Assembly: GCA_937899135.1 (NCBI GenBank)
Contig: CALBPS010000429.1
Span: forward strand, 1-26,675
Origin: an uncultured Gemmatimonadota bacterium
GTDB taxonomy: Bacteria > Gemmatimonadota > Gemmatimonadetes > Gemmatimonadales > GWC2-71-9
Length of the DNA: 26,675 bases
Direction: 5' to 3'
Below the pieces are notes generated by a model. The model was not told the DNA's origin, made no database searches, and saw only the letters and a list, made by a program, of their open reading frames with translations. Shown here piece by piece: positions 7,304 to 14,000 of the stretch. The number at the start of each line of letters is the position of its first letter. Position 1 is the stretch's first letter. A program made the translations under genes and the position numbers.

Positions 7304-7915
7304 CTATGCCTCTCCGGCACGGCGGACGCGCCGATTGAGCCGCAAGAACTCGAAGAATCGCGGCATCAGGAACCGGCGAGGCGGGGGGCCGGGGTCGGCC
7401 GATTGGAGAACCGCTAGCAGGTCCTGCGGGCTCACTTGGCGTGTCATCGTGTCCAACGAGCGAGCCAGCACAGTTCGCCCACGGCCAACCGTCACCATGG
7501 CGGGGATGGGGATCCCTCCGTGTTCGTGCTCGTTCAGCAGGTCCCAGGTGCGGATGACGCTGCGATCGGTATCGCACAACAGATCGAAGGGGAGATAAAG
7601 CTCGGCCTGCAGCAATGCCGCCGTCCGAGGAGGGTCGACCGATACAGCCGCCAGGTCGAAACCGGCGGCACCGATGGCGTCGAAGTGATCACGAAAGTCC
7701 GCCAACTGGCGAACGCAGAACGGTCACCAATGGCCTCGGTAGAACAGAAGAATGGCAGGTCGGGTGTCCACCTGCTCGTCGAGGTGCCACGGTTGCTGAC
7801 TGGCGTTCGAGAGTTGGAAGTCGGGGGCCACGGCCCCCACTCGTGGGATATTGGGTCGCCCGGGCGGTTGGTCATCGTCCATCGTCGGATCGTTGCTCCG
7901 CGGGTCGTCAATCAT
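7304..7915 (-). CDS. AhpC/TSA peroxiredoxin-like (redoxin) probable selenoprotein with UxxC motif
   Basis: The track ORFs 7724..7942 and 7304..7705 are in the same frame and separated by a single TGA (7724-7726): APDFQL...AILLFYRGHW-TGA-PFCVRQLADF...AVSVD...PFDLLCD. The TGA occupies the first Cys position of the WCPFC motif and is followed by a SECIS-like hairpin. ATG 7915 overlaps the upstream stop (ATGA). Confidence 0.85.
7697..7726 (-). promoter_or_regulatory. Bacterial SECIS element downstream of the in-frame UGA
   Basis: UGA-CCGUUCUGC-GUUCGCC-AGUU-GGCGGAC forms a 7-bp stem (one G-U). The 4-nt apical loop starts 16 nt after the UGA and has G at its second position, fitting the general bacterial SECIS consensus. 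Confidence 0.7.
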
Positions 7916-8835
7916 GCTTCGGGCTCGAGGAATTCGATCCACATCCCGCGCGCCAGCCCGGGCGGCACGAGAAACGATCGTCCTCTCCCGGAAACCGTGG
8001 TGAAGGGGAATCGTCGCCCCACGCCAGTGGCGACCACCTGGCGCGCTCGCACGATACTCTCGACGATTATTGTCACGCCCATGATGCTCTCGCCCTGTTG
8101 TTCGAGATACGAGGCGGTGATGCCTTTGAGGTCGGTGGGGCTCACGAGAACCAGGGTCCCTTGCGCCATGGGGAATGCACGACCCAGTCCGTTGAGCGGT
8201 TGCATGGCGACGACATCCCCGGCTGTCCAGCCCAGGGCCTCCAGTCGTCGGGTCGTTGCAGCAATGTCCCGGACCACCAGCCAGGCCGCGGTCAGGCCGA
8301 CAGCGGTGTTGGCGTGAACCACCGCGGTGCCGGAGTCAGCGGGATGGTCCAGGTACTGAATGAAGAACACCCGACGAAGCGGTTCCGGTTCCATGAGGGC
8401 CACGGTTCGGAACCCACTGGGGCTGGGCCCCGTGTCGCTGAAGCCGGCGTCACGACTGGTCAGGTGGTCCACTACCGCCGTCATCGAGTCCGTAGCAAAC
8501 GCCAGAAAAGCTCCACCCTCCCGGTGTTCGAGAACCTCCAGGTACCACTTTGACACGCTGTCCCGGGCCTCTGTGGCGGTGATCAACTCCAGGAGCGTGC
8601 CATCCTGCAGCTTCAGGAACACGTTGCGGATGGAATTCTGGTGGAGCCGGCCGGGAGTAGCGGTGAAGCCCAGGGCAGTGTAGCTGGTGGTGGCGGCACC
8701 GAGATCGCGGACGGCGATAGGGACGTGATCTAGCCTGGCCGCGGTGACGGGCGTGCCTTGGGCCATTAGCACCGACACCGGAATCGCCAGCTGGACGAGC
8801 ATGCTCCACGTGTGCCTAGCGAGCCAGACGGACAT
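7912..8835 (-). CDS. VOC / glyoxalase-like (Glyoxalase_3-type) protein with two VOC domains and a possible signal peptide
   Basis: RLDHVPIAVRDL...ALGF...G...RNVFLKLQDGTLLELI and a second repeat GLTAAWLVVRDI...ALGW. The start is uncertain (8835 or 8802). Confidence 0.8.
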   Translation of the reverse strand: MSVWLARHTWSMLVQLAIPVSVLMAQGTPVTAARLDHVPIAVRDLGAATTSYTALGFTATPGRLHQNSIRNVFLKLQDGTLLELITATEARDSVSKWYLEVLEHREGGAFLAFATDSMTAVVDHLTSRDAGFSDTGPSPSGFRTVALMEPEPLRRVFFIQYLDHPADSGTAVVHANTAVGLTAAWLVVRDIAATTRRLEALGWTAGDVVAMQPLNGLGRAFPMAQGTLVLVSPTDLKGITASYLEQQGESIMGVTIIVESIVRARQVVATGVGRRFPFTTVSGRGRSFLVPPGLARGMWIEFLEPEA

Positions 8836-9295
8836 TGGTGAACGCGGGCTCATCGGTGACTTCCCGGGTGACGTGTGGCGCCAGCCATTGCGGAATGGTG
8901 GGGTGTCGCTCGTCCGGCAGTTCGATCTCGCCCAGCACGAGGGGTTGGTCCAGAAACTCGTCGATCTCCCAGATGAAATCTCCATCCGGGACCAGGTAGC
9001 GGCGCTTACGAATGCGCCGTCCATTGGTCAGGGGCCACAGCGCATCGAAGAATCGTTCGGTCATCGGCTCTTCGATTTCGATGCGCGAGACTCCTCTGCC
9101 GAGTTTGATGGTGCGGACGAAACGGGTCTTGCCGGCCTGGCGCACCCGGCGGATTCGTTCGATGATCTTGGTGCCCGGGAGATACCCCTGCACGATCTCG
9201 ACGGACGGTGCGGCCGCCGCGGTGTCGGGGAGGCCCTCGAGCAAGTACTTGCGTTCGATCTCTCGGTCGAGGGGCGGATCGGTGGTGGAGGCCAT
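8816..9295 (-). CDS. CYTH-domain (triphosphate tunnel metalloenzyme) protein
   Basis: EIERKYL (ExExK), QGYL, RIRR, TIK, RIEIE, IRKRRY, WEIDEF, EIEL, EVTD and the C-terminal FTN. Start at MASTTD (9295). Confidence 0.9.
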   Translation of the reverse strand: MASTTDPPLDREIERKYLLEGLPDTAAAAPSVEIVQGYLPGTKIIERIRRVRQAGKTRFVRTIKLGRGVSRIEIEEPMTERFFDALWPLTNGRRIRKRRYLVPDGDFIWEIDEFLDQPLVLGEIELPDERHPTIPQWLAPHVTREVTDEPAFTNVRLAR

Positions 9296-9312
9296 CGACG
9301 TGAGTGTACCGG

Positions 9313-10485
9313 TTACGCTGCTACCACGACTGGGTTGGCGAATCGCACTCGCTGGATGGCTTGCTGCCGCATCAACTGGATGAACGGCAAGGCAAACTGA
9401 GGATCGAAATCGTCGCCGGTGTTTTCTTCGATCAACGCCAACGCCTTCTCCGACGGCCAGGCGTCGCGATATGGGCGGTTGGTGCACAGCGCGTCGTACA
9501 CATCGCACACGTGAACCAGGCGGCTGGCGATGTGAGTTGGGCGCGCGTAGTGCATGGAAGGGTAACCGCCGCCGTTCAGCATGATGTGATGTTCGTAAGC
9601 CACGATGGCGGGCACTTCCAGCCGGACGTCCCGGCCCAGGATGATCCTGGCGCCTTCGTCGGGGTGTCGCTGCATGACGCGACGCTCTTCGTCGGTAAAC
9701 GCTCCGGGCTTGACGAGAATCTCCTTGGGGATCCTTACTTTCCCCAGATCGTGCAACAACCCGGCCACACCCATCACTCGTACGTCCCGCCCCTGAAGGC
9801 CGATGTACTCGGCGACGGCCATGGCCAGGACCGCCACGTTGGTGGAGTGTGTCGTGGTGTACTGATCGAATTCCTTCAGTTGGAGGAGCGGAAGGAGGAT
9901 CTCCTCCTGGCTGTGCATGGCGGTGGACAACGACCGCACCACCATCTCCGCTTCGAGCATGGGGATGTCGCCCTGGTCCTGCACTTGCCGGTGCATCCAC
10001 TCGATGGTGTCGATGTCGTCTTGCAGCGTGTAGGCGATCGTGGCGCTGGTCCCCAGTAGTTCGTCGGTCTCCTCCGCCTCCTCGATGCCGACCAAGATTG
10101 GCCCGTAGCGGATTCCGGTGCGCCGCATGTACCTGGCCTCGGTGGTGTCCAGCGATTCACCCTTGAACCGGAGGTAGGCGTCACGGAGAAATTCCTCGTA
10201 GTCGTCCCGTGTCACGCTCTCGTCGATCTCGACACGCTCGACACCGACCTCGGCCAGTCGAGGTCCCCATTCCCACTCCTTGAGATCCCGGAGCACCTCC
10301 CGGTGGAACACCACTTCGCGGTCCACGAAGGTGAATTGCCGCTCCCCTGCCCCATCCACCAGGTCGCGCAGCTTCTCGTACGATTCGTCGACGGCCCGCT
10401 CGCGTGCCGGATGGCCTTTGTCGTATAGGGACATGACGGCCAACACGTGCCCCATGGACATCAGAAACCGAACAGGATCGCTCAT
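9313..10485 (-). CDS. HD-GYP domain phosphodiesterase (putative cyclic dinucleotide PDE) with an uncharacterised N-terminal domain
   Basis: YTTTHSTNV, GLLHDLGK, MQRHP, EHHIMLNGGGYP, VCDVYDAL and RPY. The start overlaps the upstream stop (ATGA). Confidence 0.92.
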   Translation of the reverse strand: MSDPVRFLMSMGHVLAVMSLYDKGHPARERAVDESYEKLRDLVDGAGERQFTFVDREVVFHREVLRDLKEWEWGPRLAEVGVERVEIDESVTRDDYEEFLRDAYLRFKGESLDTTEARYMRRTGIRYGPILVGIEEAEETDELLGTSATIAYTLQDDIDTIEWMHRQVQDQGDIPMLEAEMVVRSLSTAMHSQEEILLPLLQLKEFDQYTTTHSTNVAVLAMAVAEYIGLQGRDVRVMGVAGLLHDLGKVRIPKEILVKPGAFTDEERRVMQRHPDEGARIILGRDVRLEVPAIVAYEHHIMLNGGGYPSMHYARPTHIASRLVHVCDVYDALCTNRPYRDAWPSEKALALIEENTGDDFDPQFALPFIQLMRQQAIQRVRFANPVVVAA

Positions 10486-12536
10486 GCGCTGGTGACCATG
10501 GCGCGGATCTCCTCATGCGTGCTGTTTCGAGCCGAATCGAGCACCAACTGAACCTCCGGCGAATCGGCCCAGGTCGTTGACAAGGCGCCCAGGGCCGCCA
10601 GCATTTCGGGCGAGACAGCAGCCAGGCGGCGTCGGCGCTGCCACCACTTGCGTTTGGCCAGGGCTTTGTCAAGCAGCGCCCTGCGGGGCCGGGAGGTGGT
10701 GAGACATCCGAGCACCCGGATGGCCAGCACGCGGATGTCGCCGTCATCGTCGTCCAACAGTTCCAGCGCTCGACGCTCCGCCTTGGGAGGGCAGGCCACC
10801 GTGGCGGCGGTCAGGGCCATGCGGATGATCGAGGTGTCGTCGTCGGTCAGCCCGATCAATATGCCGCTCTCTCGCACCTCTGTCCCCTGAGCCTGGAGCA
10901 TCAACTTGACGGCTTCGCGCCGTACTCGCGCGTCGTCGGCGCGGGCATGCATTTCCGGCGAGAAGCCCTCGGGCCACTCCGGCAGCGATCCCAACAGGAT
11001 GAGGAGGTTTCGCTTGACGTACCATTCGGCTTGGGACAATCGTGCCGCGGCCAGTGGACCGACCCCCGAGCCCATGGCTGTCAGGGTGCTCAGCAGGCGG
11101 TGGCGCATGGCCCGAGACTGCGCCGTCGCAAGGGCGTCCAGCAGCGGCTCGGCGGCGTCGGCGCCGAGCCGCTCGAGTACCCGCTGGACCCCTTCGACGT
11201 TGTGTTCGTCGTGGGCCAGCAAATATGTCACCTGTTCTGGCGACGAAAGGTACGCCCAGGTGTCTGCCGGAGTAGAAGACGCCTCCGGGGCGGCATCGAG
11301 AATGTCCAGCAACTCCTGAAACCGGCCCGTCTGCAACATGTTGTCTACCGCGTTGGCCACCGTGGCGCCAAACACGCTGACCTCCATGGCCATCTGGATG
11401 ATCCGGGGGGCCTCGCTGGTTGTTTCACTGGTTGCGCTCGTGGTCTCCTCGGTTCCGACGGCCGCGAGCCGCTCGAGGACCGCGGTGTATGCCTCCGGAT
11501 TGGGATCCTCCAGGGTCCAGTCGTCGAGCAGGGACTGGACCGATTCCCTGAAGCTGTCGTCGGCCTGTGGTTTGAGGGCGGTGTTGCTATCCCTCTCGGC
11601 GTGATCCGCCAGCTTGGACAACAGGCGGAGGAACGAATGGGAGATCGTCTGCTGGCCCGTATCCGCCGCGGCCTTGACCAGATCCATCACCGCGCTGACC
11701 GGCAACGTCGCCGATAGATCGGAGAGCAGCTGATTCCGGTCGGCAAGGCCTCCGCCAACCTCGAGGAGCCGCTTGAGGGTAGCCTGGTCGAGCGACTGCA
11801 GGAGGCCGGCGACCTGTTCTTGCATGGCCTTGGCCTCGGCTCCCTCACGGAGTTTGAGTTCCCGTCCCAATTGTGTGAGGTACCCGACGATGACCTGGTC
11901 GTATGTCCGGTCTCCCTTGCGGTCCTTGATCGCCTCAGCGACTCGATCCGGGTCTCCGCCGGTCGCGTCGTCGGTCCCGCCCACGGTATCCTTGCGTAGC
12001 GCCGCCGCCGCCAGTCCCAGCCATAGTTGTGACTGACCAGCCAGCCCTTCACGTTTCGCGTCATCGCCCGCCAGGACCAGCTCATCGAACGTGAGGGGGA
12101 TCACTTTGATGTGCTGCCAGCGGTCGAGCTCCTCGCTTGGCCGCAGTCCGAATGGCACGTCTTCCCGGTTGGCCTCCGGGCACAATGTGGCGAGAAGATC
12201 CGCCAACTCACTCAAGGTGACGCCCGCCTGGAACCGGATGGCAGCCACCTGGTGGCGATGCAACCGCTCGGCCAGTTCCGACAGTACGGCGCTATGCGGA
12301 TCGGTCGCCACGCCCTCCACGATCAGCTGATTCCGGGCCACCCCCATCGCCAGCATATCACGTTCCGACAGCAGGGCCAGGAGTTGCGTGTAGACCGATT
12401 CGGTGGCCTCATTGACGACCGGGTGGTTGGTGGGATACGTGGCGGCCTTGTGGAGGCCGACTGAGAGCTGCACCAGGAACACAGAGATTTCCCGGGACAG
12501 CGTCTGGGCCTTTGGGGAGGCCTCAGGTTCATTCAC
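10482..12536 (-). CDS. HEAT/armadillo-repeat protein
   Basis: C-terminal HEAT-like repeats (WYVKRNLLILLG; DARVRREAVKLM; DDDTSIIRMAL; DDDDGDIRVLAIRVLG). GTG start with a GAGG RBS. The N-terminal domain resembles that of the HD-GYP neighbour. Confidence 0.8.
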   Translation of the reverse strand: MNEPEASPKAQTLSREISVFLVQLSVGLHKAATYPTNHPVVNEATESVYTQLLALLSERDMLAMGVARNQLIVEGVATDPHSAVLSELAERLHRHQVAAIRFQAGVTLSELADLLATLCPEANREDVPFGLRPSEELDRWQHIKVIPLTFDELVLAGDDAKREGLAGQSQLWLGLAAAALRKDTVGGTDDATGGDPDRVAEAIKDRKGDRTYDQVIVGYLTQLGRELKLREGAEAKAMQEQVAGLLQSLDQATLKRLLEVGGGLADRNQLLSDLSATLPVSAVMDLVKAAADTGQQTISHSFLRLLSKLADHAERDSNTALKPQADDSFRESVQSLLDDWTLEDPNPEAYTAVLERLAAVGTEETTSATSETTSEAPRIIQMAMEVSVFGATVANAVDNMLQTGRFQELLDILDAAPEASSTPADTWAYLSSPEQVTYLLAHDEHNVEGVQRVLERLGADAAEPLLDALATAQSRAMRHRLLSTLTAMGSGVGPLAAARLSQAEWYVKRNLLILLGSLPEWPEGFSPEMHARADDARVRREAVKLMLQAQGTEVRESGILIGLTDDDTSIIRMALTAATVACPPKAERRALELLDDDDGDIRVLAIRVLGCLTTSRPRRALLDKALAKRKWWQRRRRLAAVSPEMLAALGALSTTWADSPEVQLVLDSARNSTHEEIRAMVTSA

Positions 12537-12707
12537 GGCCTCAGGTCCATTAACGATCGGTTGTGGGCGGAAGAGGGTTCACGCCGGCAGTTGTCTACCA
12601 CAGGCTGCCACCGGCGACTGTCCCACTCGACAATACTGGACCGCGACCCATTCTACTAAAGTACGTACCCGACCGGTGGGCTGAAACCCCAAGCATGCAG
12701 TGGGCTC

Positions 12708-14000
12708 CTACTCGATGCCGGTCTCGATAGCGTCGAGCATGGCCTCGGCGAACTGGTCCACCTCGTCCACGGTGGTGTACACGTTCGGCGTCACTCGCAG
12801 ACCTTGGAATTCGGGGTGGAGGATCGGCACGGTGACGATGCCGTAGTTTCGGCGGAGCCAGCCCGGGAGGGCCTTGGTGTCCAGCCCGTCGACACTCACC
12901 AACCCGATGGCTCCTCCGTACTCCGAGTCGAGTGGCGTGAGAACGGTAACCCGGTCGCTCTCCTCCAGGAGGAGCTTTGCCCATCGGTCTCGCAGGTACC
13001 GCAAGCGCGCGACCTTGCGCTCGGCGCCGATGCCCTGGTGGAACGCCAATGCCGCTGAGATGGCATTGTGGTTGGCCGCCGGGTGTGTCCCGATCTCCTC
13101 GTACTTGCGGATGTTGTCGTCCATCGATTCAGGTGCGGCCATGAGGGGCCACAGGCCGCGCTGCTTGTCCTTGCGAACGTAGAGGAAGCCGGTACCGATC
13201 GGCGCCAGCAGCCATTTGTGCAGACTGGTGCCGTAGTAATCGCAATCGAGCTCGTCACGGGTGAACGGAAAATGGGCGAACGCGTGGGCGCCGTCGACGA
13301 ACACCTCGATGCCTCGGGGCCGGGCTAATTCGACGATCTCCCGCACCGGCAGGATCTGGCCTGACAAGTTGGTAATATGGGTGACCTCGATGACCTTGGT
13401 CCGTGGCGTGATCGCCTCGGCGTACCGCTCGACGATGTGCTCCTGTGATGGCGGGGGCACGGTGAACGAGATTTCCTTCACCACGATGCCGTCCCGGCGG
13501 GCGCGTTGCTGCCACCCGGTGATCATCCGGGGATAGTTCTGGGTCGTGACCAGCACTTCGTCGCCCGGCTCTAGGTCGAGGCCGAAGATCATGATCTCCA
13601 GGGCCTCCGACGCGTTGCGGGTGATCGCCATCTCTTCGGGGTCGCAGCCAAACTCCTCAGCCAGCTCCCGCCGCACGAACTCGACCCTGGGCTCCAGTAC
13701 GCACCACATATACTCCACCGGGTGTACGTCGGTGAATTGGAGGTCGCGGACCATCGCTTCCAGAACGTGGGTAGGCGTGGGGCACACCCCGCCGTTGTTC
13801 AGGTTGATCAGCGTGCGATCGGGAGCGAAGGCGCGCTGGAGGTGGCTCCAGTATTCCTCGTCGTCCGCTACCGCCCCAGCAGATCGCACCCCTGCCTGCT
13901 CGGTGGCGCGGAGGACCCGCCTGATGGCGTCGGAGCGAAAGGGTGGCAGGGCGAGAGTGGCACCGGCAACGGAAGTGACGAACGATCGGCGGTTCAGCAT
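12708..14000 (-). CDS. Tat-exported class V PLP-dependent aminotransferase (isopenicillin-N-epimerase / cysteine desulfurase-like)
   Basis: Twin-arginine signal NRRSFV. Class V motifs LNNGGVCP, RNASEAL, THITNLSG, VDGAHAF and the PLP lysine in TSLHKWL. AGGAG RBS. Confidence 0.92.
   Translation of the reverse strand: MLNRRSFVTSVAGATLALPPFRSDAIRRVLRATEQAGVRSAGAVADDEEYWSHLQRAFAPDRTLINLNNGGVCPTPTHVLEAMVRDLQFTDVHPVEYMWCVLEPRVEFVRRELAEEFGCDPEEMAITRNASEALEIMIFGLDLEPGDEVLVTTQNYPRMITGWQQRARRDGIVVKEISFTVPPPSQEHIVERYAEAITPRTKVIEVTHITNLSGQILPVREIVELARPRGIEVFVDGAHAFAHFPFTRDELDCDYYGTSLHKWLLAPIGTGFLYVRKDKQRGLWPLMAAPESMDDNIRKYEEIGTHPAANHNAISAALAFHQGIGAERKVARLRYLRDRWAKLLLEESDRVTVLTPLDSEYGGAIGLVSVDGLDTKALPGWLRRNYGIVTVPILHPEFQGLRVTPNVYTTVDEVDQFAEAMLDAIETGIE

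Follow-up and report, generated by a model that had tools for sequence, protein, structure and literature searches.

The locus and its reading frame

The 26,675-nucleotide stretch analysed here (the window) is contig C429 (CALBPS010000429.1) of a 3.09-Mb bin that consists of 595 contigs and is 71% complete (assembly GCA_937899135.1). Its minus strand carries, from 7915 to 7304, what is very probably one intact, mis-annotated selenoprotein gene of a known family, as judged from sequence comparison. The complete coding sequence comprises 203 codons for amino acids, from the start ATG at 7915..7913 to the stop TAG at 7306..7304, and would encode a peroxiredoxin-like protein with selenocysteine (Sec) at position 64 and Cys at position 67.

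The minus-strand frame 7942..7304 can be read either from GTG 7942 or from ATG 7915 down to the TAG; on translation its only internal stop is a TGA (7726..7724), around which the sequence reads F-Y-R-G-H-W-TGA-P-F-C-V-R-Q-L-A-D. Under translation table 11 this TGA cuts the frame in two, leaving an open reading frame (ORF) of 72 residues (7724..7942) and another of 133 residues (7304..7705). Read as Sec, the TGA (7724..7726, minus strand) becomes U64 of the protein, or residue 73 of the 212-residue read-through product P0001. Three codons further on, at 7715..7717 on the same strand, a UGC encodes Cys67, the second redox residue of the U-P-F-C motif, whose column is invariant in our alignment. 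The ATG at 7915 overlaps the TGA stop codon of the upstream gene (ATGA), and the relative L036 is arranged alike. A conserved Met codon at 7882..7880 (minus strand) is an alternative start that would give a protein of 192 residues, and the second Met (MGDDQP) is the start in some clades.

The AhpC-TSA domain of Pfam matches residues 35-157 of the 212-residue read-through product (2.5e-22, 79.6 bits, cut-off 26), and the match runs across the TGA at residue 73. An earlier, sequence-only reading of this DNA, which named no strand, had proposed two ORFs sharing one frame and parted only by the TGA at 7724-7726, had placed a gene of 203 residues at 7304-7915, and had predicted that standard gene callers would split it. 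The minus-strand translation confirms the shared frame, and both the coordinates and the length are correct if ATG 7915 is taken as the start. As for the splitting, a length of about 133 residues is common to the 24 nearest database proteins, which correspond to the fragment downstream of the TGA and begin at the TTG site. This TTG (7703..7705, minus strand), which in the full-length frame is the codon for Leu71, is the miscalled start of the 133-residue 'peroxiredoxin' fragment (7705..7304), both in the ORF list and in the database entries.

Conservation of the UGA codon and selection on both halves

For comparison, DNA of relatives was drawn from metagenomes, GTDB genomes and genomes of the same genus. 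TGA was present at the same column in 23 of the 23 orthologous or related genes read as DNA, at protein identities as low as about 43%; they include L019-L025, L027-L030, L033-L036 and L047-L050, as well as L079 and L080, which represent two other clusters at 50% identity. In three more distant forms read as DNA (L026, L031/L032 and L037), the column is occupied by a Cys codon (TGT or TGC) within the same W-C-P-F-C motif. A profile search covering 1.84 billion representatives extended this picture: among the best 150 representatives at 50% identity, which were those examined, 116 of the 127 full-length ones contain [FWY]-C-x-x-C, and 25 of the 150 are truncated, starting at L/M-A-[DE]-[YF], seven codons past the U column. 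Several of the highest-scoring proteins found (P0030, of 1430 residues, P0031-P0033, P0036 and others) are long and show three to five separate peroxiredoxin-like profile matches each, the redoxin domain being repeated in tandem.

Contigs from three other studies show no change at 7724-7726, although one of them differs from the window at 40 other positions. Because it is unchanged both in the relatives and in these contigs, the TGA can be neither a sequencing error nor a private nonsense mutation.

The two parts of the frame evolve alike. The median ratio of non-synonymous to synonymous substitution rates (dN/dS, Nei-Gojobori) hardly differs across the TGA, with 0.16 before it and 0.18 after it, and in the pairwise comparison of the window with L036 both sides show a dS of about 0.8-1.0 and a ratio (omega) of about 0.10-0.11. 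The evenness of dN/dS across the TGA implies, therefore, that the downstream part is not decaying and that translation of the upstream part uses the same frame. A column occupied by TGA or Cys in the homologues, a TGA retained in contigs of independent public runs, and a second half free of decay are all in line with what the sequence-only reading had anticipated.

These data also bear on the possibility that the locus is a pseudogene, or that an assembly or sequencing error has affected a former Cys codon. Either would be easily brought about, as a one-base change is enough to turn TGC or TGT into TGA. However, the same TGA recurs in 23 independently assembled relatives and in the contigs of the three other studies, and purifying selection persists past the stop; the comparative data thus refute this explanation, to which we assign a practically negligible probability.

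The hairpin downstream of the UGA

A hairpin of the bacterial Sec insertion sequence (SECIS) type lies inside the coding sequence at 7697..7714 (minus strand). It is composed of a 5' arm GUUCGCC (7714..7708), a loop AGUU (7707..7704) and a 3' arm GGCGGAC (7703..7697). Nine nucleotides separate the UGA from the 7-bp stem, the loop begins 16 nucleotides after the UGA, and a G occupies position 2 of the loop, so that sequence, spacing and loop G are all as first described. The segment encodes V-R-Q-L-A-D, and the TTG at 7705..7703 falls across the junction between loop and 3' arm, its first two bases being the last two of the AGUU loop.

Every TGA-bearing sequence contains GU(C/U)CG(C/U)C-AGUU-GGCGGA(C/U) in the same register, and the hairpin is absent from the three Cys forms, even where the peptide V-R-Q-L persists. 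In 14 non-redundant sequences, the codons of the R-Q-L-A core are virtually fixed, with CGC in 13 of 14 and CAG, TTG and GCG in 14 of 14 each. The synonymous diversity of this core is 0.03, against 0.49 at 77 other conserved degenerate codons, and only a fraction of 1e-5 of random four-codon draws is as low (p about 1e-5). Codon bias does not account for this fixation, because in the bin TTG makes up 14% of the Leu codons and GCG 31% of the Ala codons. Among the orthologues, variation of the stem is limited to C/U opposite G, which preserves pairing. When a paralogue from the same genome, located on contig C205, is included, 97.5% of the cells pair, versus 27-57% if the 3' arm is slid by one to three columns. 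Two pairs are changed on both sides in this paralogue (U-A to A-U and C-G to G-C), where the AGUU loop is found again 16 nucleotides after the UGA on a different stem. A C-G pair takes the place of the outer G-C pair in L079, with replacement of Val by Leu and of Asp by Glu, and the 14-nucleotide core CGCCAGUUGGCGG is nearly invariant across clusters that are more than 50% diverged. Comparison of sequences, and not folding energy, indicates that the hairpin is under constraint at the RNA level.

The E. coli fdhF SECIS and the bacterial SECIS consensus (Boeck; bSECISearch) are the obvious terms of comparison. There, as here, the hairpin is part of the coding sequence, directly follows the UGA on its 3' side and has a small apical loop with G followed by U. 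The fdhF stem has a bulged U, whereas the hairpin in the window is a short, perfect 7-bp stem with a four-nucleotide AGUU loop and lacks this bulge.

A single Sec-containing gene of 203 residues, as originally proposed, is therefore supported by the conserved TGA, by the Sec/Cys column, by the constraint on both halves and by the conservation of the hairpin. If translation instead terminated at the UGA, the locus would produce a peptide of 63 residues and a separate protein of 133 residues starting from TTG 7705. This is how all 24 database entries have been called, and TGA is indeed the commonest stop codon in this genome, where it ends 507 of the 1023 long ORFs, including the gene immediately upstream. 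Such a split, however, would break up one thioredoxin fold at the active site, while one Pfam domain and one confident predicted fold span the break. Moreover, constraint on the upstream piece equals that on the downstream piece, in the same frame, the TTG 'start' lies across the junction of loop and 3' arm in a conserved hairpin, and full-length Cys homologues exist. We thus consider termination at this UGA highly improbable. Reassignment of TGA as a sense codon (code 4/25) was considered separately and was ruled out, since TGA ends half of the long ORFs.

A side observation concerns the region around the UGA (window 7701-7752). The protein encoded by L025 (PVMS01087708.1, 2-796) matches the window product downstream of the UGA except for a few residues; its N-terminus is unrelated and rich in transmembrane segments, with the junction exactly at F-Y-R-G-H-W-UGA. 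In addition, about 10 otherwise unrelated contigs of the public runs match only a 45-nucleotide block containing the active site and the SECIS. This block, common to many redoxin genes at the nucleotide level, is probably behind chimeric metagenome assemblies (or real recombination).

Selenocysteine machinery of the bin

The bin contains selA (519.4 bits, cut-off 267.9) and selD (348.6 bits, cut-off 125), the latter cut by the end of contig C588. The end of C588 (about 11712-11772) translates to H-S-F-P-T-R-H-S-S-D-L, which we take to be the usual signature of Illumina adapter read-through. It removes the N-terminal Sec/Cys active site of SelD, the part that would distinguish a Sec form of this protein from a Cys form.

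The search was extended to 31 genomes, i.e. this bin and 30 relatives from the same genus, family or order. A selB gene scored over the cut-off in 29 of them and a tRNA-Sec in 28, and all five congeners carry selA, selB and tRNA-Sec. In 20 relatives of the order, the tRNA-Sec gene is located 7.9-10.8 kb downstream of a match to an IF2-like GTPase. The corresponding contig of the bin, C284, ends 2.2 kb downstream of this match; the tRNA-Sec missing from the bin is thus likely to reflect an assembly gap, because C284 ends before the expected position. The conserved position of the tRNA-Sec gene helps locate selC in fragmented bins. A selA-selB operon was also considered as the reason for the missing selB, and was rejected because the two genes are on different contigs in the congeners.

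It should be noted that several observations weigh against the presence of a functional selenoprotein gene in the window. In the 71%-complete bin selB was not found, all matches being other GTPases, and a search of the bin for the winged-helix domain of SelB (PF09107) gave no match; tRNA-Sec was likewise not found there, the matches being Ser and Leu tRNAs among only 36 tRNA genes. The hairpin does not stand out energetically: a 36-nucleotide segment folds with -11.4 kcal/mol (z = -1.05), as well as 25 of 200 shuffled sequences do, and a 66-nucleotide segment has z = -0.11 relative to shuffles. Folding energy was dropped as evidence because it is not significant in a context with 64% GC. There was no Rfam match in 7550-7800 with E up to 10, a result that is uninformative, as bacterial SECIS elements are poorly represented in that database. 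Double compensatory changes are absent among the orthologues alone, and come only from the paralogue and from distant clusters. The two public runs that are possibly metatranscriptomic provided contigs only, which do not prove transcription. Finally, Sec incorporation and the function of the protein, as a disulphide reductase or as a peroxidase, are both putative.

The failure to find selB and tRNA-Sec in the bin could suggest that the UGA is read through without Sec, by a near-cognate Trp or Cys tRNA or by suppression independent of SelB, particularly if selB or selC has been lost. On the other hand, selA is intact (519 bits), and to the best of our knowledge it has no role outside Sec-tRNA synthesis. 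The presence of selA, selB and tRNA-Sec in five of five congeners, with the expected tRNA-Sec site lying beyond the end of C284, also argues against such a loss. A conserved SECIS-type hairpin in which synonymous change is suppressed would be purposeless without SelB, and the distant homologues have Cys at this column, never Trp or Gly. Read-through of this kind appears very unlikely, even if somewhat less so than termination. The expectation that the host encodes the Sec machinery holds in part, that is, for selA and selD; selB and tRNA-Sec were seen in nearly all of the relatives and not in the bin itself.

Taken as a selenoprotein gene, the locus would be decoded by the established bacterial mechanism. 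At the UGA 7726..7724, the hairpin would recruit the complex SelB-GTP-Sec-tRNA(Sec), and Sec would be inserted in place of termination.

Fold, active site and predicted function

The AlphaFold2 model of the protein, obtained from an alignment of 15 sequences, is a single peroxiredoxin/thioredoxin fold with a mean predicted local distance difference test (pLDDT) score of 83, and over 90 in the core. The nearest solved structures found by Foldseek are BCP/PrxQ, AhpE, AhpC and ResA. In HMMER alignments to 2cx3, 2ywn and the AhpE structure 4x1u, Cys67 is matched to the peroxidatic Cys, Sec64 to the conserved Thr/Ser of the PxxxT/SxxC motif, and the invariant Arg60 to the Pro of this motif. The Pro and the Thr/Ser required in a canonical peroxiredoxin are therefore missing, their places being taken by Arg60 and Sec64. 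The model has Sec64 immediately before helix 65-76, in the place of the nucleophilic Cys of thioredoxin-like CxxC proteins. Model and alignment also show a nearly invariant Pro138 before strand 139-143, in a region that the HMMER alignments do not reach; its site may correspond to that of the cis-Pro of thioredoxin-like proteins and of the catalytic Arg of peroxiredoxins.

The best NCBIfam match is the SelL-related redox protein NF040769, with 46.1 bits, which is below the cut-off of 120 bits; models for ResA and thiol peroxidase match weakly. With NF040769, PRX_like2 (cd02970) and ResA/TlpA, the window protein shares W-C/U-x-x-C at the start of helix 1. It is not, however, a member of NF040769, given its score, and unlike ResA/TlpA it has neither a signal peptide nor a membrane anchor. 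Compared with Sec-peroxiredoxins (TxxU), BCP/PrxQ and AhpE (PDB 2cx3, 3hjp, 1xvw), the fold is the same (Foldseek E about 1e-13 to 1e-11, TM-score about 0.85 on the target). In contrast to the TxxU Sec-peroxiredoxins and the Cys peroxiredoxins, the Sec of the window protein is located three residues upstream of the peroxidatic Cys position, in the Thr/Ser place, and the Pro is replaced by Arg.

Because Sec is in the Thr/Ser place and the peroxidatic Cys is the second Cys, the protein is not a canonical peroxiredoxin. The description 'peroxiredoxin-like' given in the sequence-only reading is accurate as far as the AhpC/TSA domain and the scaffold are concerned; it does not extend to the active site, which is a thioredoxin-style UxxC with Pro changed to Arg and Thr/Ser to Sec. 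On the basis of sequence and model, we read the protein as a UxxC oxidoreductase of the thiol:disulphide type built on a peroxiredoxin scaffold, which is a predicted function. The gene product would be a cytoplasmic redoxin of 203 residues, with thioredoxin fold, belonging to the AhpC/TSA superfamily and having the active site U64-P-F-C67. Sec64, at the N-terminal end of helix 65-76, would act as the nucleophile and cycle with Cys67 through a selenenylsulphide. The protein may thus work as a thiol:disulphide (or hydroperoxide/electrophile) reductase, probably together with the product of the co-transcribed VOC/glyoxalase-like gene described below.

One could conceive that the protein is a true peroxiredoxin, in which Cys67 attacks the peroxide and Sec64 is a very fast resolving residue, so that the reaction would be hydroperoxide reduction instead of thiol:disulphide exchange. 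This would fit the correspondence of Cys67 to the peroxidatic Cys in 2cx3, 2ywn and AhpE, the closest solved structures, which are BCP/PrxQ and AhpE peroxiredoxins, and the assignment to the Pfam family AhpC/TSA. But Arg and Sec stand where peroxiredoxins have their active-site Pro and Thr/Ser, a nearly invariant Pro and not an Arg comes before strand 139-143, at what may be the site of the catalytic Arg, and ResA-type thiol-disulphide oxidoreductases are among the matches. In addition, the literature separates UxxC peroxiredoxin-like proteins from TxxU Sec-peroxiredoxins (PMC1088965). A peroxiredoxin mechanism is, in our opinion, unlikely, though it is by a good measure the most serious of the alternatives considered here.

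Outside the core, the orthologue group has a disordered, acidic N-terminus. The C-terminus of the window protein forms, after a disordered linker, a basic and probably amphipathic helix, P-R-F-F-E-F-L-R-L-N-R-R-V-R-R (window 7307-7372, minus strand, residues about 182-203), modelled as helix 186-202 with pLDDT 52-67, which may serve to bind a membrane or a partner. Similar basic tails are present in the Cys homologue L037, in the Sec form L030 and in the C205 paralogue.

Genomic neighbourhood

The selenoprotein gene is the last of a series of genes on the same strand with overlapping or close junctions (7912-14000, minus strand, upstream), and is followed by a convergent methyltransferase gene. 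Immediately upstream is a Glyoxalase_3/VOC-like gene (7912..9024, minus strand; Pfam Glyoxalase_3, 2.3e-17), delimited here as the maximal ORF, so that its true start may be further downstream. This gene is translationally coupled to the selenoprotein gene, its TGA stop at 7914..7912 overlapping the ATG of the latter. The series continues with a small ORF and then with a gene that encodes an HD_5 protein according to its domain assignment (9313-10485, minus strand), the small ORF lying between the HD_5 and VOC genes. A gene for a protein of 684 residues with no Pfam match (10482-12536, minus strand) overlaps the HD gene by four bases in coordinates, and a class-V aminotransferase gene (12708-14000, minus strand) is found further upstream. 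L036 has its genes in the same order, and a clade at 57% identity (L028) retains the VOC neighbour.

Other selenoprotein candidates

A crude scan of the genome for a UGA followed by a hairpin gave 155 candidates. Most of them are spurious long frames of GC-rich DNA, and a domain match across the TGA was required for a candidate to be kept. One is the C205 paralogue mentioned above (L056, C205:2212-2916, plus strand), another AhpC/TSA-like gene, whose in-frame TGA stands in the context H-R-G-D-F-U-T-Y-C. Its hairpin, ACGGCC-AGUU-GGCCGU, has the loop 16 nucleotides after the UGA, and the TGA lies within the Pfam AhpC-TSA match (2e-23). The organism probably has in this gene a second peroxiredoxin-like UxxC selenoprotein. 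Two further candidates are the DUF3179 paralogues L057 (C146:3753-4700, plus strand) and L058 (C450:7351-8436, minus strand), both with an in-frame TGA within F-U-x-x-C-N-[ST]-G, a hairpin downstream of it, and a Pfam DUF3179 match that spans it. A published list of predicted selenoprotein families includes DUF3179 (UxxC/T) (PMC13188914).

As regards the relatives, only paralogous loci with a clear reading frame were used, since the automatic frame was wrong for about half of them. Genomes of the same order carry, as separate genes, true Sec-peroxiredoxins (TxxU, F-Y-P-G-N-N-T-P-G-U-N-R-Q-L) with Sec at the peroxidatic position, as well as a second type with the motif R-T-G/R-G-U-T-A/I-Q-M. 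Loci of the two types are L054/L078 (G022:C159), L059, L062, L065, L066, L068, L073 and L076. The lineage looks rich in redoxin selenoproteins.

Relation to known selenoproteins and significance

The peroxiredoxin-like thiol:disulphide oxidoreductase selenoprotein (PF00578, UxxC/UxxU) has been listed among prokaryotic selenoproteins since 2004-2005 (PMC1088965; PMC9312934; PMC13188914), and the Sargasso Sea data of 2005 contained 22 Sec and 4 Cys sequences of this UxxC family (PMC1088965). The function of the family is so far a predicted one. From its domain, its motif and the published description, the window gene is placed in this family, whose reference sequence is WP_010940744.1. It shares with it the AhpC/TSA domain, Sec as the first residue of a thioredoxin-like UxxC, the existence of Cys homologues and the marine habitat, along with a SECIS hairpin that directly follows the UGA and has a small apical loop containing G. 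It differs in that the window group comes from marine and sediment Acidimicrobiia and has the acidic disordered N-terminus and a conserved basic C-terminal helix (186-202), and in that the window gene is the last of a conserved operon, beside a VOC/glyoxalase-like gene. For Sec use in Acidimicrobiia, the only report that we found is a 2026 preprint on Actinomarinales, which is another order (doi 10.64898/2026.04.03.716425).

A more far-reaching interpretation would be that the window group is a distinct, uncharacterised branch of the UxxC peroxiredoxin-like selenoproteins, acting as the dedicated redox partner of the coupled VOC/glyoxalase-like enzyme in an operon with an HD(-GYP)-type phosphohydrolase, and that the CGCCAGUUGGCGG core, joined to the active-site codons, is a portable 'Sec cassette' present in many unrelated redoxin genes. 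We put this forward as a speculation that is probably not correct as a whole. If it were true, a selenoenzyme of marine Acidimicrobiia would be tied to the detoxification of electrophiles or to signalling by nucleotides.

The gene itself appears to be real and its family has already been described in marine bacteria; it opens no new mechanism and resolves no open question. What it does change is the annotation. Every public entry found for the orthologue group is a 133-residue fragment devoid of the active site and, where named, is called 'peroxiredoxin', and the same truncation affects at least 25 further clusters at 50% identity. Reading the UGA as Sec would restore the catalytic motif and move the predicted function from peroxidase towards UxxC thiol:disulphide oxidoreductase. 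Considered together with the second peroxiredoxin-like gene and the two DUF3179 genes containing a TGA in the same bin, it would mean that this lineage of marine Acidimicrobiia uses Sec in several of its redox proteins.

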